A DNA stretch of 63,116 nt, counting the filler, from Craspedostauros australis (taxonomy: Eukaryota), in NCBI GenBank assembly GCA_030167865.1. It is 8 parts of 8 records of this genome, joined end to end, with 100 filler letters (N's around TTAATTAATTAA, not from the genome) between each part and the next. Parts side by side here need not be neighbours in the genome. Positions count along the whole stretch, not along the records: positions 1 to 25,849 come from JALAGF010005295.1; 7 more parts are not named here. The stretch is one strand, 5' to 3'. Within the stretch, counting starts at the first letter, position 1; the number at the start of each line of letters is the position of its first letter. Of this stretch, positions 1 to 57,386 are shown piece by piece. Below the pieces are notes generated by a model. The model was not told the origin of the DNA and did no database searches. It saw nothing but the letters and a program-made list of their open reading frames with translations. The translations under genes and the position numbers were made by a program.

Positions 1-2057
1 TACACCTTCAGAATATCCAACCATTCATCTTCGCTTGCCGGTGGTGGTCCACCGAACAACGACTCGTACAATGCACGATGCCCATCCTCGCCCGTTCCAT
101 CGTCCTCCGCGAAGCCCTCCAGCGCCGTTCGCAACAGCAACCACGAAAACGTAGATCCTAAACATGCCGCTAGCGGCAGCAGGTACTGTGCCGTATCGAT
201 CTGCTGCAGCTTCAGCTCCATCAGCTCCACCACGTTGATGGTTGCCGGAGTCTCTCGCTTGATCTGATCGTTGTCCCACACCCACTTCATCGATGCGATG
301 TCGTATGACAGCAGGGTGTCCTTGACGAGCATCCGAATGAACTGCTGGACGAAGAAGACGTTTCCATCCGTTTTCTTGAACATGATCTCTGCCAGTCCGT
401 AGCTGTTGCTATTGCGGTCATCACCGTCGTTGCTGTAGATACCCAGTAGCTGTTTGAGCATGGTATGCACGTTGTCCAACGAGAGGTTGTTGACCTCGAG
501 ACTGACGTACCGAATGAAGCGCTCCCGCTTCTTCTTCTGGATGGATGACAGCATCTGGCCAACCAGATCGGCCGTGTTCGATGTGGCCACAGAGTCCAAG
601 TCCGAAGTGCGCTTGTTGCTGGTGCCAATAGTATTCCTGACATTGCCTTCAGCATTTCTGGCATTGCCTTCAGCATTGCTGGCATTCCCATTGTCGATTC
701 CGTCCATGTTGACGAGGTTGGATCGGAAGCAGATGACGACCATGAGAGAGGAGATGGTGGTGTCCAGCATCCACGACTCGATCATGTTGAGTGATTCCTT
801 GTCTGCCCATTGGACATCATCGGATACCCACACGAGGGGACAGCAGCTGCAGATGATCTTGATGAATCGTCGGAAGGCGAACTTGAGTCGAATGGACTGC
901 TCCTTGAAGCCTTCTGTTGTCTGCGCAGGTTGGCCGGCAGAAAGGACTGTGCTTTCGTCACCGTCACCGTCACCATCACCGTTGCTGTTGCCGTTGCTGT
1001 CGGCGTGGTTGTCTTGTGTGCTTCTGTATGATAGCGCCTCGTTGCCGACGACATCGATCAGGTTGGGAATGAGCTTGTGAAGCGATTGCAGTTCAGCAAT
1101 GTTAAGATCATCTGTGATGCGCTGCCTGATCATGTCGAAGCTTCGGGTGTGCTGTTCTTCGCGATGCTTGGTGTCAACACGGCTTCTTGGAAGAGCGCAG
1201 ATCTGCGAACACAGATCGGCCATCGCGGTTCGGAAGCCAGAGTACGGTTCATCCATCTGCTTGAGATCGAACTTTCCGGACACGAAGAAGACATCGTTGG
1301 CCTTGCACTTTGGTCGCAGCGTGTTGGCCAGCGCCGATTTTCCGGTGCCCGAGTATCCGGAGATGGACACGAGGGATCGGACGGTGATAGCTTGTGCTGT
1401 CACATGTTGGACGAGAGCGTTTTGATTGTCTGGGTTGATCGCATTGCTCGCATAGATTGCGTTGCTTTCCTCGTCATTCGGACCCGTTGACCTCTCTTTG
1501 TCTGATGAAGATGAAGATGGTGGTGAGGCTGCGGACGTTGGCTTCTTGAGGATCTGCTGGAATAGACGGTCGAGGACGCGCTTCTCCTTTTCTCGTCCGA
1601 TGAGACTGATGCGCGAGAAGTCGAGAGAGCTTTGGGAGAATTCCGCCAGCTTTCTGGCTGTACGCATGCGGTTGGTCTCTGTTGCGAGCGTCGGTCCATC
1701 CTTCAGAATGCTGTTCGGCATTCCGTGTCGGTTGGAGGGCGATGTTTCCGTTGGTAGTTGGAGAGAGTGCATCCCACCCCTGTGCTGGCTGCTTGCCCCG
1801 TTGCTGACGTTGAAGGTGTTGGGCGTGTGGGGCGTGTTGGATGTGTTGCGTGCCGCGGATGCTGGCACCTTGGAGGAGCTGGGCGAAGTGAGGGTGGACG
1901 AGCAGCGCAGCTGATGGCCTGTCACATTCGGCTGTCCATTGCTGTCAGTTGATGAAGAATAGTCAAATGAGCTGTCACAGTCGACGGTGCGGGAAGCAAA
2001 AGTCCCATCATCGTGCTTCCTGTCATCGCAGAGTGTCGTTGCGTTCATCGCCATCAT
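1..2057 (-). CDS. AAA_16/STAND-like P-loop NTPase domain protein, 3' end runs off the window
   Basis: Manual translation of the minus strand from ATG 2057 (absent from the ORF track because there is no stop in the window): LIGREKEK, Walker A ISGYSGTGKS (~1335-1365), SGKFD, Walker B-like WVSDDVQWAD, and KKTDGNVFFV. The plus-strand ORFs here are antisense shadows. Confidence 0.85.
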   Translation of the reverse strand, partial: MMAMNATTLCDDRKHDDGTFASRTVDCDSSFDYSSSTDSNGQPNVTGHQLRCSSTLTSPSSSKVPASAARNTSNTPHTPNTFNVSNGASSQHRGGMHSLQLPTETSPSNRHGMPNSILKDGPTLATETNRMRTARKLAEFSQSSLDFSRISLIGREKEKRVLDRLFQQILKKPTSAASPPSSSSSDKERSTGPNDEESNAIYASNAINPDNQNALVQHVTAQAITVRSLVSISGYSGTGKSALANTLRPKCKANDVFFVSGKFDLKQMDEPYSGFRTAMADLCSQICALPRSRVDTKHREEQHTRSFDMIRQRITDDLNIAELQSLHKLIPNLIDVVGNEALSYRSTQDNHADSNGNSNGDGDGDGDESTVLSAGQPAQTTEGFKEQSIRLKFAFRRFIKIICSCCPLVWVSDDVQWADKESLNMIESWMLDTTISSLMVVICFRSNLVNMDGIDNGNASNAEGNARNAEGNVRNTIGTSNKRTSDLDSVATSNTADLVGQMLSSIQKKKRERFIRYVSLEVNNLSLDNVHTMLKQLLGIYSNDGDDRNSNSYGLAEIMFKKTDGNVFFVQQFIRMLVKDTLLSYDIASMKWVWDNDQIKRETPATINVVELMELKLQQIDTAQYLLPLAACLGSTFSWLLLRTALEGFAEDDGTGEDGHRALYESLFGGPPPASEDEWLDILKV

Positions 2058-3274
2058 GGTTTGCAAGTCCGAGAGTGGTTGAGATTTATTTATGCCTGCA
2101 TGCTGTTGCTCGGTGGTCACAGGTGTCTGTGATCTTGTTGCTGCTGCTGCCGCTTTTGCTGCTGATTTTACTGTTACTGATGTTGATCTCCCACGTGAAG
2201 AGAGGATTGGCACGTCGCGCGGCACACTCGTACCATGGCAGCGACCGCCACCATCAAGCCAAGTCGGCGTTGCGATAGGCGTGGCGCGACACTCCGCCAG
2301 CTTTTCGCTTTGGCGCATCTTTCTGCGCCATGTTCCTCTCTCTCTGTGCAATTTTGTGAGGCCATTGTCACAGTCGCTGTCCACGGCGTCAAAGACAAGC
2401 AAGGACATGCCATTCTGCTACACCCGCTTAAATGAATCGTATCACGATCATCTTCCAGACAACCAGTTGTCCGTCAGCGCGAGCTTAATAGTCGTCACCT
2501 CATCCAGAGTCATAACGCCCTTTACAGCTCACTTGTTTTCAATGTTCGTTTCTGCAATGCAGCGATAGGGAAGATGTCAACCACATCTTTTAGCAGAGAA
2601 AGTTGACACGAACTGCAGGTGTGTGGCCAACTGCCAGAGAATCTGTCGCACGAGCCCGGAGCGCGAAGGCACCGAGGCTGGCACAAGATGAATACCTCAC
2701 GCAGCAAAGCATCCCTATCCGACCCATCCAAACATTAGCGGCTAGAGGAGGTCGTATTGATGCAGCGTACGAGCGAGTAGTGTGAAGCAGGTCGGAAGGA
2801 GCCGGAAACTCTGCACAATGCGTGCTGGGAGGTGTGCTGAATCCTCGGGAAACATTTTCGTTCGCCTCCCGAAGGTCGCCGCCTGATCCACGTACCAGGC
2901 GTCAAGCAGGGCATGGACAGGGCACAACGACACAGGTTTTGGCTTGAAGCCGTCACACAGAGCCTCGATCGCACACTCCATCCACCCTCACATGTCCAAT
3001 TCTGCAAACAGTGTTGTTCCATGTTCCAGTGGGGATGGCGAAGGCGAGGTTCTCGTTGGGACTATTCGTTTTCTGTTCTGCTCCGCGCTGTTCGAACACT
3101 TCACTTCAAGAAGACATGGTGGCGACGCCGGTCACAAACAGCAAAAGGTGGACTTTTTCCTCTTTGGTGACTGGACGAGGATCTCCAGTGCGCTTGCATC
3201 ACACCCAACGAAATCCTATCAACACGTCAACAAACCCAGCACAAGCAACAGTCAGTTCCATCTCGCGCAAAACG

Positions 3275-4133: not shown

Positions 4134-5844
4134 TCAGCTTGTCGCCGACGTCTCGCTGGGCTCCTTGAGGTCCTCGCTGCTGTCATCCGTATCCGGCAGC
4201 ACGATGAAGTCCTGCCGACAGCATGGACACTCCATGGGGAACTGGCAGATCTTCTCGAGCTCGTCTTCGCCGACGGCCTGATTGTTCTGTCGACGGCGCT
4301 TGCGCGCTGTCTTGCGTCCCACCGTCAGCAGCCAATGCATGATGCAGGATTCGTGGAAGATGTGCGAGCATTGCTTGTTGGAGCTCCATGTGACGTTGTC
4401 GCCGGCCTCGAGAGGCGCGATGCAGATGGCGCATCCGTTCGGTACGTTGCGTCGTGTCGTCGTCGTCACGAAGGCATCTTTTTGATTGTCGGGCGATGGT
4501 TTCGTTTGCCCGGCCAACGGGACGCGCAACATCTCATCGGTGTCGTCTGGCGCTTCCGTCGGATCGAAGGTTTCCTCCAGCATCTCGTCGCAAGAATCCA
4601 CGCTGTCGGCACGCTGTCTGCGCACGGTTGGTTCACCCTTCATGGGTGCCACTTCGTCGTCGTGACCGAGCGGGATTTCGAGAACTGGCGGCGTCTCGTC
4701 GTCGCCATCATTATTGTCGTCGTTGCAGTTGGAAATCGGGACCGTTTGCTCCGGTCCAAAGGACGTCGACGATTCCGTGGGCATGCTCGTGCTCGGTCGC
4801 AGTTCATCCGCGTCGCCATCGGTGTCCGTGGTTTCCGTGGTGCTGGAGACGATGACACTCGAGTCCGGTACGTCGCATGATTGCGATTGCTGCAATGCAT
4901 CGTCAACGCCATCGTTGGAATTGGGATTGCCCGACTTGGGTTTGTTGTGCGTGGCGCCGAAGCTGAAGCGCCTCGTGCTCGTGGCTTGGTTGTTGCTGCT
5001 GTTGTTGTTTGGGCTGAGGCCGAGGAGGTTGAGGATGGAACGACCTGAGTGGTTGCTGTGATTGTCCTTGATCTCATCGGTCTTGAAGATGTCATCTTCT
5101 TCCAGCTCCTGCGTGATTAGTTCGTTGGTGCGTGTCCGCGGAGATGGTGGAGGCGTGGAACATGTTGCAAGGCACAAGAGTGAGCAGATTGGCGGTTTGA
5201 CGAATGCGAAGGGTGATGCGTTGTGGTCAAGATGGGAAGAGTTCGGTGGTGATGCACGAACAAGAACAAGAATGGAAAGGAACATTGCCGAGCGTGTTGT
5301 GGAACATGGTGGAAATGCAGGAACGCTTGATAGCACGGTTCCGATTCAACAACATCACCATCTCCCGGTTTGATGGCTCTCCCATTCGACAATGAACGTG
5401 ACGGACGGTACCCCACAACACAACGCAACGCAATGCAATACTCGTGATGTGTAGTATGGTACGTACCATGGTGTAATCTTGCATGGAACTCTTGAGGAAC
5501 TGCTGGCGGATCTCATCCTCCTGCGTCTTGGAGAGTTCGAATCGCTGCCTGCGCTGCTGCGCCATGCGCTGGCGACGTTCCGCTGCCGGCGTCATGATGC
5601 GGCGCATGGTCTCATCCGGCGACAGGCCGACATTCCAACGGCGTTCCTTGAGTCGCATGCGGCAGATCAATCGTCGTCGCTTGTTCCCGATGAAGGGGAG
5701 CATGATGAAGATGAGCATGCCGAGGATCCAGATGGTGAAGAAGAAGCCGCTGCTGGAGATGTCCATGTCATCGTCGCCTCTGCTGTTGTTGTTCGGTTGC
5801 GGCGTGGGCGGTAAGGTCGGGATGGTGGTTACGGTTGACGTCAT
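4134..5844 (-). CDS. Single-TM RING-H2 E3 ubiquitin ligase (ATL-like); exons 5844-5467 and 5108-4134
   Basis: N-terminal TM segment FFFTIWILGMLIFIMLPFI. Intron GTACGT...CTAAT-CACGCAG (5466-5109) joins the exons in frame. RING-H2 CAIC...CSHIFHESC...W...CPCC with an insertion before the last Cys pair. Confidence 0.88.
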
Positions 5845-7708
5845 CGTGGGGCGAAGTCTTCGTTTGCTTTGTGTGGCGGTGCGCTGCGTTACGATGCGCT
5901 GAGTTGTGGCAGGAGGGAGACGGACAATGACTCTTTCTGCGTCGGATGAATAGAGTGGGAACAGCGTTGAGTACGAGTACTATCACTTGTGAGGTGCGCA
6001 AGAACTTGCGTTTGCGTTTGACTTTGGTCCGATTTGCTTTTTGTGTGGATGTTGTTCGCCAAACCAGCGGCAAATCAGCGAACTGAGCAACTTCGTGGGA
6101 TTGGGCGCCGCGCGTTGCTCGGTGTAAGTTTTTCGCACGTTGGCACAGTATGTGTCCTTTTGGACGCCGTTGAGGGAGCCTTTCACGTAGTCACTCACAG
6201 AAGAACGAGAGAAACCGAAACCAATGCACAGTGGCAATGCCAAACACGATGACAGTGGCACAAGAGAGGATGATGACAGTGAAGTTCGCGATGGTGATGT
6301 CTCGAATCTGTTGCAGCAACCTCACGCCTCTCACCTCCTTCGCTCTGTTGCAGATACGAGTACGAACACGAGTACTGCAGTGCAAACTTGCTCCTCCAAT
6401 TGCGTTCGCCTGTCTCTCTCCTTCTCTTGTCTACGCGTATCCTGTGGGCGCAGGTTTTCTCTCGTCTCTGCTTGCTGGCGCCTTCACGATCTGCGGCGAC
6501 TACAGTTTTGCGTGTCTGCACCGCGTTGGTGCGTTGCCGGAGCGATGTGATGGCATCACAGCAGATGGATGACTTCGCGTCTGTGTCGGGAAGGGAGAAT
6601 GTAACGAGAATCTTGGTGACAGCAGTTCCAATCGATTCTTCCAGCAGTCGCGAATAATACAACACAACAGTTCCCAGAAGAGGAGTTTGTTCCCATGTTC
6701 CACACCTTTCGAAGGAGGTCATCAGGTCATCCGTGACGTCAAATGTGGGCACGCAGAGGCAGCAAAGGGGCTCTATCATCTGTTCCCCAGCGACCGAAAA
6801 CGAGTCATTCGTTACGAAGCAAAGAACAGGCATCGCGAAGGCCGACTCGCACGCTGGGAAGATGTCACAGAAGCAGAATCCATCCAAACGCGATACGGAC
6901 GACGGTCAGAATCCGGGGGTCGAGGGTTCGCTTTTGAGTGGTTCTCATTCAGTAACGTCTTCCAACGACAAGTGTCACAAAAGACGCCCACAAGACATAT
7001 TGTCACAATTGAAACGGACACAGCGATCTTTGTTTCCAGTTCAACAGCAACGCACTGTTGTTGTGACCAACAGCAGGAGGCAAGAGCAAAGAATGCTTCA
7101 TAGCCAAAGACAGGATGCCATCATCATCATCATCACTCACCGAAGCGAGCAACCAAGCAAGACAAGACAAGCAACCAAGAAGAACAGAGCACGACTGTGT
7201 GTTGCGATTGCTCCTTGGAAGCGAAGGCAGTTGACATACCACAAACATCTAACTCATCATCATTGATATAATACTACGCAACCATCCAAGAGAAGAACAG
7301 CGCTGCCACACACAACATTCCAACACAGTTATTTGCACGCTCTGCTCTATTCTTGTGGTTTGATCTCCATCATCATCATCATCATCATCATTGGCGGCAA
7401 GAAGGGCAACGGCATCCATTGCAGATAGCATAGCATACTTATTCATACATTGATTCATTGATTCATTCATTGATCGACTTGGTCTGTGGTGTTGCAAGCA
7501 ACAGAACAGCAGAACAGCAGTTGAGAACTGGGTGCAGGAGAACACAACAGAACAGAATTCAGCGCAAAGGAATTGAAGACGGATTCAGCCGCAAAACCCA
7601 AGAGAGCTCTGCATTCGGAACCTCTCCAACTGCCTTTGATCTCTGTCTACTATTATACCAGACCATACGACCATAGAGAGAACAACAACAACAACGAAAG
7701 CACCCACC

Positions 7709-9490
7709 ATGACACCACCCCGCGAATGGAGGATCTGCGCCGCGCTGCTGCTCTCCACAGCGCACGCATCCTTCCTCAATGCGCCGCAGCCTGGCATGCC
7801 GGCAACGCATTTGCAGCAAGTCGCGACGGACACGACGCCATCGCCGCGCGACATGGCGCAATTCGTCTCGAGGCAGCTGTTCGACAAGGTGTTGCATCGC
7901 GTCGACTTGACGGGAAAGCAGACCAAGAGCGATGCCAACGCTGTGGCCTTGCAAGATGTCGAGCCGTTGCTGCGACCCAAGCCCGCTCCGCAGCTTGCCG
8001 ACATTGCCGATGACACGACCGCGTTGTCCAAGTTCCAAGATGAGTTGCGGCGGCGTGAGCGTGGTGGTGGTGTGGCAGAAGAAGAACATGAAGAAGAAGT
8101 GGCTGTGGAAGAGACCGTTCTCAATGAAAAGGAGGAATCAACTGCCACGCAACTCCCAACGACAACTGACGGCAGCATCGTCAACTCCATCATGACCTTC
8201 GTGGAAGCCGATGTTCCCGTCTTGCCACAACCACCGCAGATGGAGCAAGAAACCATTCCTGAAAAGACGATCATCGAGGTGCAAGAAGCGGATGATGACG
8301 ACGACGACGACGATGCCATTGAGGAAACAACTGAGACTCCACCCATCGAGGTGCAAGAAGACGACGACGACGACGAAGAAGAGCTGCCTGCCGCCGAGGA
8401 ACCATCGCCAGATGAGCACATGGAGATGGAACCTGCAGAATCGATCGCGGAAGCACGTCGCCAACCAAAGTCGCCACAGGAAGAGGCAGCGTTGGCCGCC
8501 AAGTACGCCGCCATCGATTCGCTTGAAGACAGGATGTTCACAATCCTGCAAGATCTGGGCATGGTCGGATTGCACGATGCGGAGCCAGAACTTCTCGTGG
8601 TCGAAGACGACGGTATCGACGACACAGATGATGATGACACAGGTGATGATGACACAGGTGATGAAGACGGTATCGATGTTTTGGACACCACACCGGAACA
8701 AGCTGCTGAGGAAGCTGCCGACGAGCCGCAACTCGCAAGTGCGGATCTTGCTGCACCTGAAATCGTCACACCAAAGCCACTCGAAGTCGTCTACGAGCCT
8801 CCACCCGTCGCATCCCTGCCCCCCAGGCTAACCCAACAAGAGATCCAGGAGGCACGTCGCCAACCAAAGTCGCCGGAAGAAGAGGCAGTCCTGGCTGCCA
8901 AGTACGCCGCCATCGATTCACTTGAAGACAGGGTGTTCGCCATCCTGCAAGATCTGGGCATGGTCGCTGTCCAAGAGGCGCTCGAACCGACACCATCCAA
9001 CACCGCGCAACCGGGTTTCACTGCCGTGTCCTACGCGGCCAGCACGCGCGAGGCATCGATCCCGGTTCCGGCCACACAACTGCAGGCCACCGCCGTCACG
9101 TCCGAGTCCTTGGAGACGTCGCATCCACCCAGCCTCCTCCAAAAGATCCGCCCCAAGCGCGTCGTGACCGGCCTCAAGCACTTCGTGTCACGTTCGCGCG
9201 ATCCGCTGCACCTGTCGCCAATCAGCAAGACCGTCCGTCTGCGCAACCGCATGCTCGACACTCTCGCCATCGTGTGGGGCAAGTTCAAGAGCGTGCCGGG
9301 CGTGCGAGTCGACGTCGATGTCGATCACCGCATCAACGCCGATCTGGGTTACCTGCCGCGTTGCATCCGAGAAGCGCGCCAGCAACCCAAGTCGGTCGAG
9401 AAAGAGTTGGCGCTGGCTCAGAAGTACGCCTCCATCGATGATCTCAGCGATCGTGCCGCCGTCATTTTGGATGATCTTGGCATGATCTAG
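7709..9490 (+). CDS. Acidic, low-complexity protein with signal peptide (possibly plastid-targeted) and three copies of a ~40-aa RQPKS...DLGM module
   Basis: 593-aa ORF with hydrophobic leader AALLLSTAHAS|F. Modules lie at ~8450-8566, ~8848-8965 and ~9371-9487, separated by D/E-rich spacers. Confidence 0.85.
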   Translation: MTPPREWRICAALLLSTAHASFLNAPQPGMPATHLQQVATDTTPSPRDMAQFVSRQLFDKVLHRVDLTGKQTKSDANAVALQDVEPLLRPKPAPQLADIADDTTALSKFQDELRRRERGGGVAEEEHEEEVAVEETVLNEKEESTATQLPTTTDGSIVNSIMTFVEADVPVLPQPPQMEQETIPEKTIIEVQEADDDDDDDDAIEETTETPPIEVQEDDDDDEEELPAAEEPSPDEHMEMEPAESIAEARRQPKSPQEEAALAAKYAAIDSLEDRMFTILQDLGMVGLHDAEPELLVVEDDGIDDTDDDDTGDDDTGDEDGIDVLDTTPEQAAEEAADEPQLASADLAAPEIVTPKPLEVVYEPPPVASLPPRLTQQEIQEARRQPKSPEEEAVLAAKYAAIDSLEDRVFAILQDLGMVAVQEALEPTPSNTAQPGFTAVSYAASTREASIPVPATQLQATAVTSESLETSHPPSLLQKIRPKRVVTGLKHFVSRSRDPLHLSPISKTVRLRNRMLDTLAIVWGKFKSVPGVRVDVDVDHRINADLGYLPRCIREARQQPKSVEKELALAQKYASIDDLSDRAAVILDDLGMI

Positions 9491-9810
9491 AGAACAGTGG
9501 GGACGGAAATGATTTCATGTTCATATTCTATTCGAATGGCAGTAGTAGACAGCATATTACATCATGTGTTGAATCATGGAGTTTGTCAGGCTCTCTCGCT
9601 CTCTAGACTCATTCAGTATGGTACCAAACGGGACAATGACATTGAGTGAGTACCGTTTCCTCCGTACTTTTTGCGTTGATGCGAAGTTCAAATCAGCAAC
9701 ATTCTGCTGCAGCCACATCCGGCGACATCCACAATCATAAAAAAGAAATCCGCAGACATCGGGGTCATCGCTGGCCTTCATCATCGATGGCGACAACTGC
9801 AAGCACCACC

Positions 9811-11817
9811 ATGACGCCGACTCTCTCGCAGCACGTGGCCGTGGCCCTGCTGCTGACGATGCCCTGCGTCGATGCATTCTCCGTGCGCGCCAACAATCAG
9901 CAGCAGTTCGCACCTCTCTTCCAAGCACAGCAACGACAGCCGCAACGCACGTGGCTCTCCAAGTTCCGCGATCAAGCCACGCAGGCCATCGGGATGGCCA
10001 GCATCTCCGTGGCCTTGCTGCAGGGTGCGGTCGTGCCGCCGGCTCATGCCAGTGTCGTCGTGCAGCAGCAGCAAGCAGTAGTGCAGCAAGCAGTTGTGCA
10101 ACAAGAAGAGTCCGTCGACAGTATCCTGTCGCATGCAAGATCCGTGCTGGCCGACTTTGACGATCTTCTGCGAGATGATGTGGAGAATGATATTGAACAT
10201 GATGTCGAGAATGATGAGGCTGAGGATGCATACGAACTCTTTCTGCAACACAGTGCTCATGGCTCAGAACAGGAACAGCATGCTGACATGATCGACATCA
10301 GCAGCAGCGACAATGACTTCGATCGCCATGACTATGGCTGGGATGCCTCCTTCGATGCTCTTCTCGCTGAAGGCAACACAGCAACGATACAGACTTCCAT
10401 CCCGGCTGCGTCCAGATCAGCGCTGAAGCAGCATCCGACCTTGGACGATAGCCATGACTCCGACGTCGAAGAAGACATCGATGGCCGCACTGCCTCATCG
10501 TGGTCCAGACCTGCCTTCCTTCGCCGATCGGTCATGGAACCGACGCCCGTCATGAAGCACCACGAAGGCACGTCACAGCAACAACAGCAACCAGAGATGC
10601 TGGCCTCCACGACAAACGCTCAACAGCAACAAGCGCAACAGCAACAGCAACAGCAACAAGAGACGAACACAGCTTCCACCACACAAGAAGACGTTTCCCC
10701 GATGATGCGTCGCATCTCTCTCACGACACCGCAGCTCTCCACAAGAGGCGGCGACAGTTCCATCCTCGCGTCCACGTCCACATCTACGTCCACCACCGCA
10801 TCTCACATGATGAAGCGCGTCGCGGCCGGTGGGGCGCTGGTCAGTGTTCGGCCCATCGCCACCGAAACCCCCGTCACTCTGTCCGATGAATGGATGGAAG
10901 AGTTCCATTGCCAGACCAAGGACTTCACCAACGTGGAGACCACGCTGGTTCCGGAAACCAACATCGCACAACAGCTTGCCGCGGCCGGTCCCAGCGGTGG
11001 CGACGGCAGCTACGATCATGACATCGACACCGTTGATGCGGGGCCCATATCCAGGGTGAGAAAACTCTTTCGCAACAATCCACGTCTTTCCAAAGGCATC
11101 GCCTTTGTGGCAGCTGGCACTGCTGGCGTGATGGTTGGCAAGGCCGTTTACAACAACTGGTTCAAGACTGCGCGTACAGAATCCGTCGTCGACGCCACCA
11201 CCGACGATGTCACCGAAGTCGACATCGCAGTGGAAGCACAGACGATCCAAGAACAACTACAGACGACCACACCCATCCGAACCATCGCGACAAATGCGTT
11301 GGACAGGATCAAGGGTCTCCCATCCATCATCTCCAACACGGTCGTGGCCAACCGCGAGATGCAAGATGCGACTAACCTTCCTACAACGGTAGCTGCGGTC
11401 ACTCTGGGCGGTGGCGTCGGTCTGTTCATGACACGCAAGGAACATGCAGCGACGTCTCTTATGGAGGCCGACGACGACTTCCTTGAGCTCTCCGCTCCTG
11501 CACAAACGCACGATGCCCCCACATCCGATGTCTCCGTCGATGACATCCAGAAACGAGGATGGTCCAAGATCTTTGGCGCGCCCAATCCGCAGATCATGAC
11601 ACCACCTGCGTTCGTGGCCACGCCACAACAGGAGCAATATCCATTAATGGACCGCGACTCCATCCGCGCCCGACAACAACCCAAACCCAAACGAGTCGAA
11701 CGATCCTTGGCACAACGATACGGTCAGATTGAAGACGTGGGCGACCGCGCCTTTCAGATACTGTTGGATTTGGGCATGATCCAAACGACGACCAACGACG
11801 ATGTGGTAATTGCGTAA
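9811..11817 (+). CDS. Plastid (probably thylakoid)-targeted low-complexity protein with one C-terminal RQQPK...DLGM module
   Basis: Start is ATG 9811 or 9787. Leader VAVALLLTMPCVDA|FSV, then a second hydrophobic stretch ending PPAHA. Two later hydrophobic segments, then the module ARQQPKPKRVERSLAQRYGQIEDVGDRAFQILLDLGMI. Confidence 0.82.
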   Translation: MTPTLSQHVAVALLLTMPCVDAFSVRANNQQQFAPLFQAQQRQPQRTWLSKFRDQATQAIGMASISVALLQGAVVPPAHASVVVQQQQAVVQQAVVQQEESVDSILSHARSVLADFDDLLRDDVENDIEHDVENDEAEDAYELFLQHSAHGSEQEQHADMIDISSSDNDFDRHDYGWDASFDALLAEGNTATIQTSIPAASRSALKQHPTLDDSHDSDVEEDIDGRTASSWSRPAFLRRSVMEPTPVMKHHEGTSQQQQQPEMLASTTNAQQQQAQQQQQQQQETNTASTTQEDVSPMMRRISLTTPQLSTRGGDSSILASTSTSTSTTASHMMKRVAAGGALVSVRPIATETPVTLSDEWMEEFHCQTKDFTNVETTLVPETNIAQQLAAAGPSGGDGSYDHDIDTVDAGPISRVRKLFRNNPRLSKGIAFVAAGTAGVMVGKAVYNNWFKTARTESVVDATTDDVTEVDIAVEAQTIQEQLQTTTPIRTIATNALDRIKGLPSIISNTVVANREMQDATNLPTTVAAVTLGGGVGLFMTRKEHAATSLMEADDDFLELSAPAQTHDAPTSDVSVDDIQKRGWSKIFGAPNPQIMTPPAFVATPQQEQYPLMDRDSIRARQQPKPKRVERSLAQRYGQIEDVGDRAFQILLDLGMIQTTTNDDVVIA

Positions 11818-12036
11818 GCAAGCAACGCGCCGTGTGTGAGAATACATGGGATTTTCCGTAAATCCTTTTGCCGCACACGCGCAGATGCCGTGCCATTCCT
11901 TGTCTTGTGTTGTTGTAGAACTGTATCCTAATTGATGTAATGTAATGTAATCGTATCTATGTACCAGTAGCAACAGCAGTATGCACTCGTTCATCACCAC
12001 TCTATGTTGCTGCTGCTATGAACGGCACACGCCCAT

Positions 12037-12792
12037 TCAAGATGCAACGCCCTTGGTCTTCATGTCCGCCCGTTCGCTGGATCTCATGACCGTCTCGGCA
12101 TTCTTGCGATCCACCTCATCCACGCGCACCGCAATCTCTTCCGGCGTGTATCCCGGTATACACTGATTCCGAATCTTCAATCGGTCCATGCACTTGTCAA
12201 TGTCCGACTCGATGTAGATCTTGAGATCAAACATCTCCGGAATCTCCTTCCAACCATCATCTTCATGCAGCAGGTACAACCCTTCGCAGATCACGACGCG
12301 ATGCTGCTTGCGATCAAAGATATGCTTATCAGGCTCCGGATCGCCGACGGCATGATCGAAGGCCGGTACCGTCACCATAGCCTCATCGCCATCGCGGATG
12401 CGCTGCAAATCGTGCAGCAGGGTGCGCGGATCGAATGTGTCTGGCGCACCGCGGCGGTAGATCCTGTCGTCGGCATCGTGCAGCGTCTTGAGATGCGCCA
12501 TCGTGTAGTGGTATCCATCGTGCGGCATGATCATGCATGGCAATTGGAGGGATTCCAAAGCGCTGGCCAGCAGGAAGCAACTGACGGACTTGCCGCTGCC
12601 CGGGATGCCGACGACGCAGACCATGAAGGGTTTGGTCGTACTCGTGTTTTGCAGCGCAGTGTGGATTTGTTGTGCGGCGTCGGCTTCCCATGTCAGTTCG
12701 TAGCAGTTGGATGGTTCCTGCGGCGGCGCAGATTGATCGGTGTTCTGCGGTTCGCGCATCGTCAGATCAGGGATGTGGTGTTTGGCGGTCAT
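12037..12792 (-). CDS. Uridine kinase/PRK-superfamily P-loop kinase (YFH7/YggC-like)
   Basis: Motifs VVGIPGSGKS, PHDGYH, RRGAPDTFD, VPAFDHAVGDP and VICEGLYLL. Confidence 0.9.
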   Translation of the reverse strand: MTAKHHIPDLTMREPQNTDQSAPPQEPSNCYELTWEADAAQQIHTALQNTSTTKPFMVCVVGIPGSGKSVSCFLLASALESLQLPCMIMPHDGYHYTMAHLKTLHDADDRIYRRGAPDTFDPRTLLHDLQRIRDGDEAMVTVPAFDHAVGDPEPDKHIFDRKQHRVVICEGLYLLHEDDGWKEIPEMFDLKIYIESDIDKCMDRLKIRNQCIPGYTPEEIAVRVDEVDRKNAETVMRSSERADMKTKGVAS

Positions 12793-17240: not shown

Positions 17241-17996
17241 ATGGGAAAGTTCAAGGGCATGAACGCCAAGGCGGCAGCCGCCGTCGAGAAGAAGGCGCAG
17301 AACGATGCCGTGAAGAACGCCAAATCGGCCGCCGACAAAGAACGACAGACGCAGCAGGAATGGTCCGTCGGCGCCAACAACCGCGGTACCAAGCGTGCCG
17401 AATCCGCCGCTGCCAAGGCCGACGAGGCTGCGCGCAAACGGCAGGAGAAGGCCGCGTTGCTGGCCGAGGAGGAGGCCAACTTGGGACCCGGCGGCAAGGT
17501 CAAGCGCACGTCGGCGCTCAGCAAGAAGAAGAAGAAAGGAAACGACCTCAGCCTGCTCGAGGATGCGCTCGTGGGCGCCGCCGACAAGAAGGTCAAGGCC
17601 AAGAAACGGGCCGAGCGTGAGAAGCAGGAGAAGCTGAAGCAGGAGCGTCTCAAGAAGGAGGAAGCAGACGCCGCGAAGGTCGTCGATCCGCTGCTGGCCA
17701 ACACGAATGCGATGCTCGCCGGCACCGAAGATCAGCTGGTGGGACGCGCTGCCAACAAGGCCATGGATGAGGATGGTGTGGCGGCCAGCGGTCTGGACGG
17801 CGCCTTGAATTCTCTCAGCCTGTCCGGTGGTGGCGAGCAGATACGCAGCGCCAAGGCGTTGTACAAGGCATTCGAGCAGCGGATGATGCCAGAAATGAAG
17901 GAGGATTACCCAGGTCTCAAGCTTTCGCAGTACAAGGAAAAGATCTTCAATCTGTGGAAGAAATCACCGGAGAATCCTGCGAATCGGCCCTCGTGA
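17241..17996 (+). CDS. CCDC124: CCDC124/Lso2-family coiled-coil protein
   Basis: N-terminus MGKFKGMNAKAAAA...W..GAN.R. C-terminal KALYKAFEQRMMPEMKEDYPGLKLSQYKEKIFNLWKKSPENP motif. Confidence 0.88.
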   Translation: MGKFKGMNAKAAAAVEKKAQNDAVKNAKSAADKERQTQQEWSVGANNRGTKRAESAAAKADEAARKRQEKAALLAEEEANLGPGGKVKRTSALSKKKKKGNDLSLLEDALVGAADKKVKAKKRAEREKQEKLKQERLKKEEADAAKVVDPLLANTNAMLAGTEDQLVGRAANKAMDEDGVAASGLDGALNSLSLSGGGEQIRSAKALYKAFEQRMMPEMKEDYPGLKLSQYKEKIFNLWKKSPENPANRPS

Positions 17997-27070: not shown

Positions 27071-30000
27071 TCATTCGAATGTTCTTGATGTATCAAGGTA
27101 CGACTTCTCGTGTTCACGTTGTAAGTCGGCCTTGATGTTCTTGGTGAATCTGTCGCTTGTGTTCTGCTCGGATTTAACGAAAATGATTTCGATGGTTTTG
27201 TTGATTACCATGTTCCTCACGTAGTGATGGCGCACGTCGATGTGCCGCGATCGTTGGGATGTTGATGGGTTCTTGGCGATGAAGATTGCTCCAATGTTGT
27301 CCATGCGGACCTTGATCGGCGTCTTCACTGGGACGCCCACACTTTCGAGTAGCTGCATGACGAAGAAGATCTCCTTTGCTGCTTCGGAAAGGTCAACGTA
27401 GTCTGCTTCGGATGAGCTGAGTGTGATGGCCTTCTGTGCCTTGGATCGCCAAAGGATTGGCACCTTGCACAGGTATAGGATGAATCCCCCTACGCTGATT
27501 CTCGTGTTCTTNNNNNNNNNNNNNNNNNNNNNNNNNNNNNNNNNNNNNNNNNNNNNNNNNNNNNNNNNNNNNNNNNNNNNNNNNNNNNNNNNNNNNNNNN
27601 NNGTATCGATCACATACTTGATGATCCGATACATCTCCTTCATTGCGGCCTTAGTGGGCCCGATCAATACCTTGGAGAGTTCCCTCACAGGGTTCGCGAT
27701 ATCTGGTCGCGAGTGCTTGATGAGAAAGAGCAGCATACCGACGCCTCGGCGGTATTCGGCATGTTCTTCCAGTCCGACCTTCTGTAGTCCGTTATCTTCG
27801 AATGGTCGTACGATGATTTGACCCGGGGTTCCCGGTGTCCCGTAGCGTTGCATCTTCTCAACCTTGGTTCCGAATTCTTCGATGAGATGTCGGATGAGGT
27901 GTGGTTGACGTAATGTTGCTTTGGTCTTGTCATGGTTCAGNNNNNNNNNNNNNNNNNNNNNNNNNNNNNNNNNNNNNNNNNNNNNNNNNNNNNNNNNNNN
28001 NNNNNNNNNNNNNNNNNNNNNNNNNNNNNNNNNNTTGGAGTCTCCGCAACAGAAGCAATCGTCCACGTAGATGGCCACGATCATGCTTCCTTCGTTCGTC
28101 TTCCTGTAGAACAGGCACAGGTCTGCTGCGCTCTGTTCGAAGTTAATATCCTTGAGGGTCGATACCAACATCTTGAACCATTGCCTGGCGCTCTGCACAA
28201 GTCCGTAGATTGGCTTGTGTAGGGTCAGGGCTTTGTCTGCTTGATGATCCATCCTGTTGGGACAGTTCATGTAGATCTCCTCGTTGAGGTCTCCATGTAG
28301 GAATGCCGTTACAACATCGACGAGTGCGCAGTCCATCTTCTTGATCAGCATGATCACCATCATGACCCAATAGGTCACGTCATGAATGACGGGTGAGTAG
28401 TACTCTTGGAAGTCTACTCCTGCAATTTGTGAGTAGCCACATGCAACGAACCGTGCTCGATGTGTGCCGTCGCGTTTCAGCTTGAAGACCCATTTGCACT
28501 TGCAGCATCTGCGGCCGCGTGGGATGGCGTCTCGTTTGATCTTGCTGTACACCTTTCGTGTGTTCATGGAGTCGAACTCCTTCTTGATGGCTGCTCGATA
28601 TCCCTTTCGATGGATGGGATCTGGATGATTGAAGGCTCCATCGAATGTTGTAGGTTCGATGTGCTTCTCTGGTTCCTTGTTCTCGTCCTGCATCGACAAT
28701 TCGATGTCGATCATTGGTGCCTCGGTGATGATTGCGTTCATCCCATATAGTCCAGTTGTGCTATGATGAGTGATTTCGATCTCTTCTTCATCTGCAATCT
28801 CTTCGTCATCTGTAGTTTCGTTGTTGGACTCGTCGGTTATCTCATCGCTGAGTTCGTCACTATCGTCATTGGATGATGACTTGCTCTCATAGCCTTCCTC
28901 CTTTCGACCTTGTTCGTTGAAGTCTGCGAGCTCACACAGAGCTCTGGGAATACTCTTCCCTGTAGTTGGCTTAGGATTAGCTTCTCCCTTCCTGTCTCGT
29001 GCTTCATGACGTCGGATTCTCTCCTTTCTAGCTATGTCACGCTTGCTTGGTTTGTTGGGTGGAGGTCTGGATGGTACGTTATGTGTAGACTTCGCTGGTG
29101 TATTCGGAGGAGTGACGCCTGTGTCATCGTCGGCTTCGTCGCCGGATGGTATGATCTCGTCATCCTCATGATTGGATTCGCTCCAATTTTCCTCGTCGTT
29201 GTGGATTAGTTGAGTCACTACTCCGTCGTCCTCATTATCCTCATCGTCGCTGTCCGATAGGATATAGTACCTGTTGCTGTCAGCGAAAGATNNNNNNNNN
29301 NNNNNNNNNNNNNNNNNNNNNNNNNNNNNNNNNNNNNNNNNTCGTCCTCATTATCCTCATCGTCGCTGTCCGATAGGATATAGTACCTGTTGCTGTCAGC
29401 GAAAGATACTCTCTTCGCTTCTGATACTTGACACGTTGCCGTCCTTGGCATTGCTCCCTTCCGTCCGATGGTTGTAAAGCCGTCTGCGTCCGTTGTTCCT
29501 ACTTCGTTGGATATGTTCGGTGCTGGTGCCCAGCCACGGAACTGTCCGTATGATTGGTTGAGTCACTTGATATCGCGTGAGCAGATCAGTGACTTGGTCG
29601 ATGGTCTGTACATGTTGTAGACCCCTGATGCATGTTGGTGTGCATATCCGATGAACACCATCTCTTCTCCTCTATTCTTGAGTTTAGCGGTGATCCCGCC
29701 GTAGGTAGTCTTCACAACACCCACCTCTCCGAATGTGCGGAGTGCATCTGCGTATGGTGGATCGTTGCCAAAGAATTGTCGATGTGGTGACTCCTTTTGA
29801 TTCTTCGCTACGGTGATGTTAGCGATGGCAGTGGCAGTGCTCGCAGCAGCTGCCCACAGGCCATGCCTATACTCTTCGTCGAGCTGTGCTCCATTGAGCA
29901 TGGAGCGGATCTTGGTATAGAGGTACGCGAACTTGCGTTCCACTCTGCCGTTCTGTTGCGGCGTGTTCGATGCCATGAATTCGAATTTCACGTTCAGTCC

Positions 30001-33000
30001 TGCATCGATGAGAATATCCTGCGTGGATTTGTTCTCTCCGCTGTTGTCACCTCGGAAGATGATCTGTTGGTCACCAGTCTGTGACTTGATCGTTTGGATG
30101 AATCGTTTGATGTACCCTGGTTGATCACTTTTGTTCTTGAGAAAGAAACTCCAGCAGTGATCCGTGCAGTTGTCCACGATCAGGGTCCAGTAGCGTTTAT
30201 CTCCGAAGCTTATGTGTTTAGTGTAACTAATGTCAATGAAGAGCCGTTCGCCGCGGCGAGTCGTTCTTGGAATGGTTGCCTTCGGGATGTTCTTCACTCT
30301 TGCGTTCGCGACTGCGCAGTCGCGACATACCGGCATCTCGCCGATGATCTTCCATCCGTATTGGGCGGCTGTCCGCTTCATGGTCTCGAGTGGCGCGTGG
30401 CCGAGCATTCGATGCAGATTCACCGCGCTGATCTCCTTGGATGGATTCTTGATGATGGCTGTGCAAGCCTTGTCGTCATCTGTTGGCATGATGGGATGCA
30501 TCTGCACTCCCGTGATGAATCTGTTGGATGTGGGGAAGACTCGGTCGAATACGATCTTCGTTCCGGATCCGTTGATGATGTCCATCAGAATGCCGTTGTT
30601 ACCAAGNNNNNNNNNNNNNNNNNNNNNNNNNNNNNNNNNNNNNNNNNNNNNNNNNNNNNNNNNNNNNNNNNNNNNNNNNNNNNNNNNNNNNNNNNNNNNN
30701 NNNNNNNNNNNNNNNNNNNNNNNNNNNNNNNNNNNNNNNNNNNNNNNNNNNNNNNNNNNNNNNNNNNNNNNNNNNNNNNNNNNNNNNNNNNNNNNNNNNN
30801 NNNNNNNNNTCCCACTTGGACGAATGACTTGATGTGCCGCACGTTGAAGAGAGCGGCGTCTGAATTGACGATGTGACACGAAGCTCCACTGTCAGCGAGC
30901 CAGGTGTCCTTGTTGACCTTGTCTTTGTATCGAGTGCTCAGCTCGTGGAGCTGCTCCACGGCGGCTGTAGCCATCTCATCCATGAGGCCGTCTGCCTCTT
31001 CATCTTCATGCACTCCNNNNNNNNNNNNNNNNNNNNNNNNNNNNNNNNNNNNNNNNNNNNNNNNNNNNNNNNNNNNNNNNNNNNNNNNNNNNNNNNNNNN
31101 NNNNNNNNNNNNNNNNNNNNNNNNNNNNNNNNNNNNNNNNNNNNNNNNNNNNNNNNNNNNNNNNNNNNNNNNNNNNNNNNNNNNNNNNNNNNNNNNNNNN
31201 NNNNNNNNNNNNNNNNNNNNNNNNNNNNNNNNNNNNNATAGTGCAAATCCAATTCGGAGAGTTCCTCCTCTTCGTTTGCTTGCAGTAGTCGGTTGAGGAT
31301 GGCTGCGTTTGCGAGGATCTCCTCAATTGATTTGAAGTTATCGGATAGGATGGTGCTTACCATGTTCACCCAAATGTATCGCAGTGGTTCGTTCACGAAC
31401 CCTGGGAACATTGGTAATGCAGCTGTTAGAACCGCATCGTAGATGAGCTGCTTCTGCATTCGTTTTGCAGTGACCGTTGGTTCCGGGAAGGTCTGGAGTC
31501 GGTAGATGTCGTCGACTCTTCTGGGATTTGGTTCCGGTGGGAATTGGATTCGGATTGGATAGACGACGTGTTCATACGGATTGAACGTATCGCTTGGACG
31601 GTCCTCAGCTTCGTCGCTGTCCTCTTCATCGAAGATGCCCGTTCTCTCGTTTCGCATTGCTGCTGGAGGCGGCGCCTCGGCGCGGTTCGCCCCGTCTCTG
31701 ATGGTGTCGTCGTCGTCTCCATCTGCGCTGTCCTCGTCGGCGTCTTCGTCTGAGCCGCTCTTGTCGGCGTCCTCGTTGTCTTCGCTCATTGCCTCTTCGA
31801 TGTCACTATCGATGGCTTCGCTGTCCATCTTGGCTGCGTCGCCGTATGAACCGATCAGGTCGTGCGCGTTGAAGCAGCATTCGTAGCTCACTTCGCGTCT
31901 TGGATCCACCTCGTGGATGATTGGCTCCTCACTGAGCCACTCAGGAACGATCTCATCGTCCTGTACTTCGTCGTCACTTCCGACGTATTCGAAGTTATCG
32001 AAGAAGGAGTCTTCAATGTAGTCGTCGGACACCAACATGCAGAGCAGCATGTCTTTCGCCAAGAGTACCATCTCGTGCCCGCTCTTGTCGTGTCCTTCCG
32101 TTGCCGCGTTGGCTTGTTCGTTGTTCTTCTTCTTCTCGTTGAACTTCTTCTTTTGGCACTCCGCCTCGCGATGTCCGAAGATGCCACAGTAGTTGCACTT
32201 CCCGTTGAAGCCGCTTCCCTTGTTGCGGTTGTTGTTGCGCTTTCCGTTCATCTTGTTGTTGTTGTTGTTTTTCTTGTTGTTCGATTTCTTNCGTTCTGGN
32301 CAATCGGCGGATCTNTGACCATACACNCCACAGTTGTGGCAAGTACCCTTGAAGTTACCGGTGCTCGTGAAGCCGGTGTCGTTGCTCTTCGTGTTGCTGT
32401 CTTGGAAGTCGTCGATGTACGCTTTGCCTCCTTTGTGAGTGGCGTATGCAGTGCGGAGTACTCCTCTGATCGTGTTGATGGTAATCAGTTCCGGATTGTA
32501 CGTGAGTTGATGTTGGAAGTTCACAATGTGTGTACTGTACTCGTTGCTCACCGTGCTGAGGATTTGCATGATCATTTCCTCGTCCGTGATCTCGTACTTG
32601 ACATCGTGAAGACGCGAGCGTAGACCCTCGAGTCGTGTGATGTAGATGTCTGGGTCCGTGTCTCTCTTTATCTTTTCGTTGTTGAATTGGCGCTTGAGTT
32701 TGATCTTCGTCACCGCGTCGGATGGTCGGAACTTCTCCGCGAGAACGTTCCACGCTGCGTGTGCGTCTCCTTCGGGGTAGTCGTCGGAGATGCATTGGTT
32801 GATGTATTGGATGGCCTGCTTGCCTTTTCCTTTCTCTGCATCCATCATGAGGATCAGATCGCTGAAGCAGTCACATCCCAGCTCGTAGATCTCTTCCATC
32901 GCTTCCTTGGCTTCACCGGCGGCTGCCGCGATCTTGCTCACTGTTGGCACCTTAGTCTTGCCCAACATCACGTCTCTCGTCTTCTGTGCACGAGCGTATG

Positions 33001-44277: not shown

Positions 44278-45759
44278 NNNNNNNNNNNNNNNNNNNNNNN
44301 NNNNNNNNNNNNNNNNNNNNNTTAATTAATTAANNNNNNNNNNNNNNNNNNNNNNNNNNNNNNNNNNNNNNNNNNNNTGTGATGTTGTGATGTTGTGATC
44401 TTTTGATTTTATGATGTGATGGGAAGGGGAGATGTGACGACAAAAATGGGATGGAGAGACCGAAATTGGGAGGGACGGGCTCGCCGAATCAATTTTTGCG
44501 ACAGTCCCGCTGGCCAAAAAACGATTCACGAGTAGTTCAGGCTCTGATTGCGACACAAGCATCCTAACAACCCCATCGAAAGCGACACATGGCTGGATCG
44601 CCCATCTCTCAAGCTTTCTTCAGGTATGAAGAAAACGATATGTTACACGTAAACGTCGACGTCAAAATGGAGAATCCGTGAAATTTTTTTGCTATTTGGA
44701 TTCACTATAGGCCCTGGGTCATGAAGGGATAGCACCCAAGAAGGCATCCGTTCCCGCTGCGTGCCTACACGTAGAATAAACGAGGCGGAATGAAAGCGCC
44801 CCCGGCGCATGACTTAACTGTCATAATCAATGTGTTATATATATATATACATAAAAGGGGTTAATTCATGTATGAATTGGGTGTAAGACTCGTCTACCCC
44901 GATAATGGAACCATATTGTAGATATGTACAATCCATCCATTTGTCTCAGACAATGTCGCACTCGCATTCCAGGAACCTTTATATGTAAATATATATATAA
45001 CCGCAGCTTACAACGTAGATTCAACCAAGATTCAAAAGCTGCGTCAAAATATGTAATTACTTACTATTTCTGAGTATGAGTCTATGAATTAGACAGAGGA
45101 CTTTCTCAGACGCGTTCTCAATGGCTCGACCCGTTCGATCTATCAGATGGAGACTTTCTCTTTCTGGTTGTGATGGATCTGATGTCGTGTGTCATCCGAA
45201 CAGTCCCTCTTTCTCTTTGTTCATTGTCGTCCATGGAGCAGGCAGTATCGTCGCTTTTCGTTCTCATCCATCAACAGCGCCCATGTTCTCTTTGTTCATC
45301 TTTGTTCATCGGGCCACGGCCAAACCCATCATAGACTTCACTTTTGATCATGCAATGAGCGGTTTCGCTTTCTTCCTTCTCGTTCATATCATTACCAGCC
45401 GCAACATCACTGACACATTCTCGTGGCAACAGCATGGTATGGTGGAGATCCACCAGCGTGGATCAAGCAGCAGAGAAGCAGGTCAACACAGTGTTGGGGT
45501 GGATGGGATGGCAGGGCGGGCAGTGCAGGGTGTTGAGAGAGGTGAAGAGAGATGAAGAGGAAGGAGAGCCAAGCAACACACGACGTCTCTCTCATAAAAT
45601 CTCAACGTGAACATGCTCATCCGATCATCCCTTCGTTTCCTCACATTCGCGTTAATCAACAGCAACACCAACATCAGAAGCGACATCATCAGCAACAGCA
45701 ACAGCAACAGCAAACTCAACAACGCCGGCCACCACCACCACCACCACCAAGATCACGCA

Positions 45760-56800: not shown

Positions 56801-57386
56801 GGATTGAATTTAGGGTAAGTGTATTGCCTTGACAGCACCGTCGCATAGAACAACAATTACTCTTGGTGCTGTGGGAACACAGCTCCAATTTTGCTCCTGG
56901 CGACAACATCGATACTGACATGCGCGTGCGATTTTTTTTTGCGCCCATGGATTTGGTATCATCACTCGCTCTCGCTGATCGTCATCATTCTCCGTTGTCT
57001 GCTGGGGCCGTTCGTGGCAGTCTGGGTGGTCACAGAGCAAGCAACAGCCAGCGCCAAACATGAATGGCACCGGCGGTTGATGATTGGTGAACGCTGTTGC
57101 ACAGGCGGATGCGATTTGTTGTCTCCCCCAGCGGTTGTTGGATGAGTGACGGACAAGAAGCTGGTGGTGATCGTCTGTACGGAAAGCGTTGGCGTAGATG
57201 GATGGGATGTTCTGAGCAATGAAACAATAGTGCCATACTAATGGATGAGGTAGTGTGGATGAGGCTGAGAGCTTGTTCCGATTTCCNNNNNNNNNNNNNN
57301 NNNNNNNNNNNNNNNNNNNNNNNNNNNNNNTTAATTAATTAANNNNNNNNNNNNNNNNNNNNNNNNNNNNNNNNNNNNNNNNNNNN

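Follow-up and report, generated by a model that had tools for sequence, protein, structure and literature searches.

What do two neighbouring genes have in common when their proteins share nothing but one short module? The question is raised by gene 1 and gene 2 of the diatom Craspedostauros australis, which lie on the plus strand, 189 bp apart, in a stretch of 63,116 nucleotides joined from 8 parts of assembly GCA_030167865.1 (the window; Table 1). An initial annotation, made from the DNA alone, had taken them for plastid-directed proteins whose module binds a common partner, gene 1 serving as a multivalent linker and gene 2 as a membrane tether. We conclude that the module is a new, unnamed domain family, used in the known style of a shared docking unit. 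We favour the interpretation, to which we grant an even chance, that gene 1 and gene 2 belong to a large plastid-directed family of diatoms in which the module would be a common docking domain at the stromal face of the thylakoids, gene 1 a multivalent linker and gene 2 an anchor.

Four copies of one module in two adjacent genes

Gene 1 and gene 2 carry four copies of the module, three in gene 1 and one near the carboxyl terminus of gene 2, as initially annotated; outside it their products (P0001 and P0002) are indeed unrelated. Pattern scanning and alignment place the copies of gene 1 at the residues given in Table 1 and that of gene 2 at amino acids (aa) 659-706. Copy 3 forms the last residues of gene 1, and about 11-12 residues follow the ...DLGM motif in gene 2. 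Eighteen of the 48 alignment columns are invariant among the four copies (A, R, Q-P-K, E, L-A, Y, I, D-R, I-L, D-L-G-M), the other three copies being 77, 60 and 40% identical to copy 2.

A profile of 48 positions built from 27 modules (alignment A2), run against all six frames of the window, scores the four copies at 67.6-80.6 bits. The next best stretch of the window reaches only -0.8 bits, so that the four matches lie far beyond chance, and the scan yields no fifth copy in the 63 kb. Copies 1 and 2 are identical at 121 of 144 DNA positions (84%), which points to a recent internal duplication in gene 1; the DNA of the gene 2 module is just 43-50% identical to that of the gene 1 copies. The modules of gene 1 are spaced by 133 and 174 aa and have isoelectric points (pI) of 4.4-4.8, against 9.7 for the gene 2 copy.

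A new domain family

The family consensus spans about 42 aa, A-R-[RQ]-Q-P-K-S-P-E-E-E...L-A-x-K-Y-x-x-[IM]...[DE]-R-A-[FY]-x-I-L-x-D-L-G-M-[IV]. It had been described as not assignable to a named domain, and this holds: whole P0001 and P0002 give best E-values of 0.033-0.39 against Pfam-A (2025), under the gathering cut-offs of the families, no Pfam-A family is matched by more than one of the 27 isolated modules (best E 0.11), and no solved structure matches. The best sequence-profile match in the PDB, to the complex I subunit ESSS (7ar9_g; E 0.06, 16 bits), is taken as chance. AlphaFold2 run on the module alignment gives a mean predicted local distance difference test score (pLDDT) of 92, with helices at positions 2-6, 13-24 and 29-39; the module is confidently predicted to be an autonomous three-helix mini-domain. 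Fold searches with this model return no informative neighbour with Foldseek in the PDB (best E 5.8) or VIA-wide (best Z 3.7), a null result expected for so short a helical unit, and the ESM Atlas gives no usable match for the module or for carrier P0018, described below.

The family is large. A word-seeded search with gene 1 finds module-sized matches alone, in 4 proteins, a four-copy profile finds 33 longer proteins, and HMMER with the 27-module profile retrieves, from 1.84 billion cluster representatives, 682 clusters at E<=1e-3, 383 at E<=1e-10 and 11 at E<=1e-30. A locus search with the four copies (alignment A1) yields 5 short metagenome loci with one module each; no second module gene is present on those short loci. 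The named source organisms are the pennate diatom Cylindrotheca fusiformis (P0054, gene 1-type) and the centric diatom Thalassiosira profunda (P0165, a carrier with a cold-shock domain, CSD). Queries by sequence string or topic found no description of the module in the searchable text of about 8.1 million PMC and 0.36 million bioRxiv articles, some 1.7 million PMC articles, subscription journals and image-only supplements lying outside the search.

Among 168 carriers, the two window proteins included, 137 hold one copy of the module, 26 two, 4 three and 1 four. The last module ends at most 5 residues from the carboxyl terminus in 89 of the 168, at most 25 residues in 160 and more than 60 residues away in 2. 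Long spacers, disordered or charged and either flexible or stiff, precede it. Such a nearly constant terminal position would suit a tag rather than an element of a scaffold, one by which a protease adaptor, a PDZ protease or a co-chaperone recognises proteins for plastid proteostasis; one of the carriers, trigger factor, is itself a chaperone. We hold this to be very improbable: in gene 1 and 30 further proteins, internal copies have no free carboxylate and yet retain DLGM in full, a folded 42-aa domain would be unusual as a degron, and multivalency would have no role.

Additional motifs are found in the tails that follow ...DLGM. P-[ND]-P-x-D-P-x-Y-D...DDE occurs in 15 of 157 stored carriers, an acidic stretch ending in Trp (...EW[AEQ], ...ASW) in 12 of the 157, and several further tails end in ...AFM or ...PFQ. 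The tail of gene 2, QTTTNDDVVIA, has none of these.

Proteins that carry the module

Comparison of the carriers with the module masked yields 100 similarity groups, of which 78 have a single member and the largest has 16 proteins. Pfam scans of two sets of carriers (21, then 130) assign functions to a few. P0027 is a complete plastid-type trigger factor (Trigger_N, FKBP_C, Trigger_C) and P0037 a trigger-factor C-domain protein. P0031, P0141 and P0165, together with the fragments P0020 and P0035, have a CSD, separated from the module by a long Ala/Glu/Lys/Arg-rich repeat.

P0018 represents the largest group (16 proteins, alignment A3) and, folded with its family alignment, reaches a mean pLDDT of 72.8. 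Structure comparison of this model matches residues ~224-334 to the DUF2470/DRI-type heme-binding domain, with hits to the glutamyl-tRNA reductase (GluTR)-binding protein 4n7r_C (Z 10.9, root-mean-square deviation 2.3, 98 residues aligned), to MSMEG_6519 5bnc_B (Z 11.2) and to Ssr1698 8zxq (Z 10.4). Foldseek E-values for this domain start at 4e-5 and unrelated rows score Z 4.8 or less; Pfam at E<=0.01 does not recognise the domain of this group. Judging from the model, the group may correspond, in diatoms, to the plant protein by which GluTR is kept at the thylakoid. Its consensus includes ...YGxDG... and ...PDWWT....

One carrier, P0015, is bestrophin-like. We rejected the bestrophin-module fusion as a general architecture, P0015 being the sole carrier among 120 listed bestrophins. 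The diatom bestrophin homologues P0186-P0304 measure 700-1300 aa and have long acidic carboxyl-terminal extensions with short motifs of their own, ...[DS]-I-I-[EQ]-P-I-F-[IL]-E... and ...D-[IV]-[DS]-V-L-E-M-D..., unrelated to the module, which may be another shared tail signal.

The commonest architecture runs, from the amino terminus, through an endoplasmic reticulum (ER) signal ending in ...A/F (the slash marks the putative cut), a transit-peptide-like stretch, a second hydrophobic stretch with A-H-A or a like motif at its end, a short gap, a transmembrane (TM)-like segment rich in Gly, Ala, Ser and Thr and followed by Arg/Lys, and a long polar or acidic stretch, to the module. By a composition rule, 40 of 130 carriers of at least 150 aa have a Gly/Ala/Ser/Thr-rich TM-like segment with a basic tail ahead of the module, and gene 2 has two. 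On sequence features, gene 2 belongs to this class of anchor, disordered tether and module.

Plastid targeting

The bipartite (ASAFAP-type) plastid presequence of diatoms consists of an ER signal peptide followed by Phe, or by Trp, Tyr or Leu, at position +1 of the cleavage site. Both genes had been credited with such a leader, which is plausible for gene 2 from a downstream start and less secure for gene 1. Gene 2 has a strong core and a putative ...VDA/F cut, provided that translation starts at Met37 or Met45; only then does a ...CVDA/FS leader with a clear core result, since the first ATG of the open reading frame (ORF) adds 36 polar and basic, non-signal residues. The core of gene 1 (ICAALLLSTAHA-SF) is short and weak, and its Phe falls at +1 or +2 depending on the cut; its relatives P0054 and P0100 have clear signal-plus-Phe leaders.

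Leaders of the homologs, judged by eye and with a crude script, were counted in 114 carriers of at least 150 aa that start with Met, one near-duplicate being left out. An N-terminal hydrophobic core is present in 53, and [AGSC]F follows within the next 24 residues in 39 of these, against 75 of 605 (12%) control windows of equal length further down the same proteins. By this crude rule, the expected enrichment of diatom plastid-type leaders among homologs is found. The remaining 61 carriers mostly look like N-terminally truncated gene calls.

The leader of the trigger factor and CSD carriers consists of signal and transit peptide only, and on this ground the module would have to act in the stroma. 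Targeting to the thylakoid involves A-x-A processing sites and PsbW/PsbX-type insertion, and the pattern of the commonest carriers predicts a thylakoid anchor that leaves tether and module in the stroma. Gene 2-type proteins show an apparent ER signal, a transit peptide, an A-H-A stretch and a further hydrophobic helix with basic residues behind it; this order recalls PsbW, PsbX and CFoII, with their cleavable A-x-A transfer signal, and would lead to a stromal tether with the module. However, PsbW, PsbX and CFoII have one mature TM segment, whereas gene 2 has two TM-like segments and about 345 residues between its AHA and the next of them. The hydrophobic stretch with A-x-A is found also in P0011, P0014, P0063, P0067, P0099, P0144 and others, and the single-segment relatives P0011, P0014 and P0099 fit an A-x-A signal plus one mature TM segment better than gene 2 does.

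Gene 1 as candidate linker and gene 2 as candidate anchor

Its sequence makes gene 1 a member of a conserved, putatively soluble and very acidic family with 2-3 modules, represented in alignment A4 by gene 1, P0054, P0100, P0049, P0181, P0038, P0039, P0040, P0005 and P0007. The family plan comprises a signal-plus-Phe leader, an N-terminal helix, a long acidic region, one or two internal modules that often miss the RQPK arm, a basic segment (with R484 nearly invariant in A4) and a full terminal module. Gene 1 has 125 Asp and Glu against 52 Lys and Arg (pI 4.25), the density of acidic residues reaching 21-23 per 50 in places, and its description as multivalent with acidic, disorder-prone spacers is borne out. 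A 325-aa Ser-rich ORF runs antisense to gene 1 at 7585-8562 on the minus strand; it is not a gene but a by-product of the GAx-rich strand that encodes the acidic protein.

Gene 2 looks anchored, in agreement with its proposed role as a membrane tether: two Gly-rich TM-like segments add to a thylakoid-type hydrophobic segment ending in AHA. Its module is 55% identical over 51 aa to that of the anchor-type protein P0174, including a YPLxD extension that is found in 18 of the 168 carriers.

A proposed docking domain at the thylakoid surface

Nearly every position of the module is kept across unrelated carriers, from which we infer that all copies should fit one common partner; conservation this extreme is in keeping with the partner binding first proposed. 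In the mechanism that we favour, the module would be a docking domain working in the stroma at the thylakoid surface. Proteins of the gene 2 type, which combine an ER signal, Phe, a transit peptide, a hydrophobic transfer signal of the A-x-A kind and a Gly-rich helix with basic residues behind it, would insert into the thylakoid and present the module at the end of an acidic tether. The soluble gene 1-type proteins, with 2-3 modules, would cross-link the partner or the anchors, and single-module carriers would be clients recruited to the same place. Of 164 copies, about 73% have a Ser directly after QPK, and 78 have S-P there. This conserved Ser, in RRQPK-S-P-EEE, has the context of an acidic-directed and Pro-directed kinase site and may switch docking on and off. 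By functional analogy, the arrangement recalls dockerin and cohesin, where many unrelated carriers bear a linker tipped with a small autonomous domain, some of them with several copies; the module has no sequence or fold relation to that system, and its setting would be the plastid stroma, not the cell surface.

Several points weigh against this interpretation. The topology of gene 2, as predicted from its sequence, is ambiguous, since a lumen-type signal with two TM-like segments behind it would bring the module into the lumen, and these segments are weakly hydrophobic (means 1.38-1.45). No Pfam domain is found in 128 of the 130 further carriers, so the diversity of carriers rests on few families, and the bestrophin fusion, with 1 of 120 homologues, may be a gene-call chimera. 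Leader and anchor counts are rough because many database proteins are fragments. The docking partner and the localisation are putative, deduced from sequences and models, and the phospho-switch at the Ser is pure conjecture.

The module could also be its own docking partner. Tethers anchored in membranes that face each other would then zip together with the 2-3-valent gene 1 proteins into a homotypic network, for instance for thylakoid spacing or bundling, a scheme that we judge rather improbable. It is consistent with the strong conservation of helix 3 on both its faces (D-R-A-F-x-I-L-x-D-L-G-M) and with the fact that the commonest carriers, being predicted to sit in the membrane already, need no membrane-targeting domain; the available text of PMC10288592 provides, with the stickers of PYCO1, a precedent for stickers that oligomerise. 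However, such self-association is putative, the module alone is predicted to fold stably as a monomer, and there would be no evident reason for the network to take in the soluble enzymes and chaperones among the carriers. A two-copy complex prediction (score 0.01), made without controls and without the module alignment, is evidence neither way.

Beyond docking at the thylakoid, a bolder extension, which we consider unlikely, would make the module the common plug of a diatom-specific plastid network. Anchors, cross-linkers and module-tagged translation, RNA and tetrapyrrole factors would meet on one hub that defines a stromal sub-compartment, docking would be regulated at the Ser, and gene 1 and gene 2 would form a conserved linked cassette. 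The sub-compartment could be, for example, a zone of biogenesis or translation, or could concern how the three-thylakoid bands are spaced or how the pyrenoid is attached to its thylakoids. Diatoms account for a large share of ocean carbon fixation and, to our knowledge, little is established about how the interior of their plastid is organised, be it the three-thylakoid bands, the attachment of the pyrenoid or the sites of protein synthesis. As the tail of hundreds of plastid-directed clusters, many membrane-anchored and some with several copies, the module offers a handle on this organisation. Being C-terminal, it may be masked by the C-terminal green fluorescent protein tags of large localisation screens; masking by C-terminal tags is given as a limitation in the accessible part of the preprint of Nam et al.

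Rubisco and the pyrenoid

Could the common partner be Rubisco? The Rubisco-binding motif of Chlamydomonas is, as we take it, Trp-based, [D/N]W[R/K]xx[L/I/V/A]; in this form it has no regular-expression match in P0001 or P0002, and the module is devoid of Trp. The initial annotation had likened the pair to EPYC1 and RBMP1/2, and we weighed the corresponding scheme: the module would bind Rubisco or the pyrenoid, gene 1 would act like EPYC1 or PYCO1 in condensing Rubisco, and gene 2, like RBMP1/2, would link the matrix to the thylakoids that penetrate the pyrenoid. The comparison stands as to the architecture of linker plus tether and fails to tie the module to Rubisco or the pyrenoid; we find this scheme quite improbable.

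The likeness of architecture is real. In the Chlamydomonas system (EPYC1, RBMP1/2, SAGA1/2, CSP41A), as presented in the accessible part of PMC7673724, one unit, often C-terminal, is present on a multivalent disordered soluble protein, on transmembrane thylakoid proteins and on unrelated carriers, and the common partner is read as organising a plastid sub-compartment. The diatom module differs in being a folded three-helix unit of ~42 aa without Trp, whereas the Chlamydomonas motif is short and linear; the spacers are acidic, as are all of the four modules but the gene 2 copy (pI 9.7), and the lineage is that of diatoms with form ID Rubisco. In favour of the Rubisco scheme, Thalassiosira pseudonana has no known linker according to the accessible text of the Nam et al. 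preprint. In Phaeodactylum tricornutum, the consulted part of PMC11142338 has the C-terminal extension G407-P519 of PtBST3 required for pyrenoid localisation, and its authors saw no motif there.

Against these parallels stand the properties of the proteins themselves. PYCO1 of Phaeodactylum, from the available portion of PMC10288592, is likewise a diatom plastid protein with repeated stickers that are split by disordered sequence and able to oligomerise. It has a pI of 10.03 and six ~80-aa repeats with KWSP and GTGYNP stickers. Gene 1, by contrast, has a pI of 4.25 with acidic modules, has three of these at spacings well apart from ~60-80 aa, and is without sequence similarity to PYCO1; neither KWSP nor a Trp-based motif occurs in P0001 or P0002. 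A screen for green-algal linkers demands pI>8 in the accessible part of the Ulva preprint, and the pyrenoid proteins of T. pseudonana, in that of Nam et al., are without a repeat at the expected spacing of ~60 aa. The module is a folded domain, nearly always C-terminal, and not a short linear sticker. It occurs on 1 of the 120 listed bestrophin homologues, and its identifiable carriers (trigger factor, CSD and heme-binding-type domain) are not named among pyrenoid proteins in the accessible portions of the pyrenoid literature.

Linkage of the two genes

The two genes might also have no joint function: an old local duplication, or shuffling of modules, would have made them neighbours, and each carrier would use the module on its own account, for example to cap and stabilise a disordered tail. 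Their proteins are unrelated outside the module, the module of gene 2 is nearer to that of anchor-type proteins of other organisms (55%) than to that of gene 1 (40%), and adjacency of eukaryotic genes rarely implies function. We nevertheless give this explanation little credence. A mere cap would not need 18 invariant positions, and pairs of gene 1-type and gene 2-type proteins occur on like-sized contigs: P0100 (gene 1-type) and P0174 (gene 2-type) of another organism are each recorded on a contig of exactly 14,876 bases, and their close variants P0305 and P0175 each on one of exactly 19,076 bases. These matching records suggest that a distant diatom may share the linkage of gene 1 and gene 2.

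Features, transcription and surroundings of the locus

Coordinates are collected in Table 1.

Table 1. Features of the gene 1-gene 2 locus and ordinary nuclear genes of the window (positions count along the window)
Feature	Position	Strand	Remarks
Gene 1 (ORF)	7709..9490	+	593 aa, P0001, pI 4.25; putatively soluble, very acidic, three modules
Gene 1 putative ER signal peptide (MTPPREWRICAALLLSTAHAS/F)	7709..7771	+	weak hydrophobic core, aa 9-27
Conserved N-terminal helix of gene 1 family (MAQFVSRQLFDKVL)	7853..7894	+	aligns with MSWFLTTQLLE / MASFLAMQLLE of P0054, P0049, P0100
Acidic spacer 1, D/E runs	8009..8440	+	14-23 D+E per 50 residues
Module copy 1	8441..8575	+	gene 1 aa 245-289; 80.6 bits in six-frame profile scan; alignment A1
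Acidic spacer 2	8576..8839	+	aa 301-350: 21 D+E, 0 K+R
Module copy 2	8840..8974	+	gene 1 aa 378-422; 79.9 bits; DNA 84% identical to copy 1
Basic segment ahead of last module (LLQKIRPKRVVTGLKHFVSRSRD...)	9134..9289	+	family pattern K/R-x-R-x-x-R-P-I-R-x-F; 7-8 K+R per 50 residues
Module copy 3	9362..9487	+	gene 1 aa 552-593; exact C-terminus; 67.6 bits
Gene 2 (ORF)	9679..11817	+	712 aa, P0002; membrane-anchor-type module carrier; likely start Met37, nucleotide 9787
Gene 2 putative ER signal peptide	9787..9876	+	ends ...CVDA, then Phe67; hydrophobic peak 1.66 at aa 53-71
Second hydrophobic stretch, ending AHA	9985..10050	+	aa 103-124; peak 1.54; thylakoid-transfer-type signal or anchor
Gly/Ala-rich TM-like segment 1 (KGIAFVAAGTAGVMVGKAVYN)	11092..11154	+	aa 472-492; peak 1.45; class pattern matched
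Gly-rich TM-like segment 2 (LPTTVAAVTLGGGVGLFM), then RKEH	11377..11430	+	aa 567-584; peak 1.38
Gene 2 module with YPLxD extension	11638..11793	+	aa 654-705; 69.9 bits
AAA_16 ATPase	3-2408	-	ordinary nuclear gene
RING finger	4134-5285	-	ordinary nuclear gene
Ccdc124/LSO1-like	17241-17996	+	ordinary nuclear gene
Zinc alcohol dehydrogenase	45613-46773	+	ordinary nuclear gene
S28 serine carboxypeptidase	47429-49765	+	ordinary nuclear gene
Cyclin	52189-53040	-	ordinary nuclear gene

Contigs of run X1, a run of uncertain type whose label 'RNA?' is a guess, cover positions 9157-9566 (gene 1) and 11458-11894 (gene 2) with 100% identity. They span the last ~330 bases of each gene and 76-77 bases beyond its stop, which suggests compatibility with 3'-biased complementary DNA of both genes. 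A gene of the PRK/uridine-kinase family (12037-12792, minus strand) converges on gene 2; the X1 contig of highest depth starts at 11905, which would put the 3' ends of the two genes about 10 bases apart.

The six-frame profile scan finds no module in the six ordinary nuclear genes of Table 1. Pieces of copia-type long terminal repeat retrotransposons, with the domains RVT_2, Retrotran_gag_2, SH3_retrovirus, Pol_BBD and zf-CCHC, lie at 27071-32968 and 57335-61353, both on the minus strand, partly within a block of low guanine-plus-cytosine content (36-48% at ~24-34 kb, against ~52-56% elsewhere).

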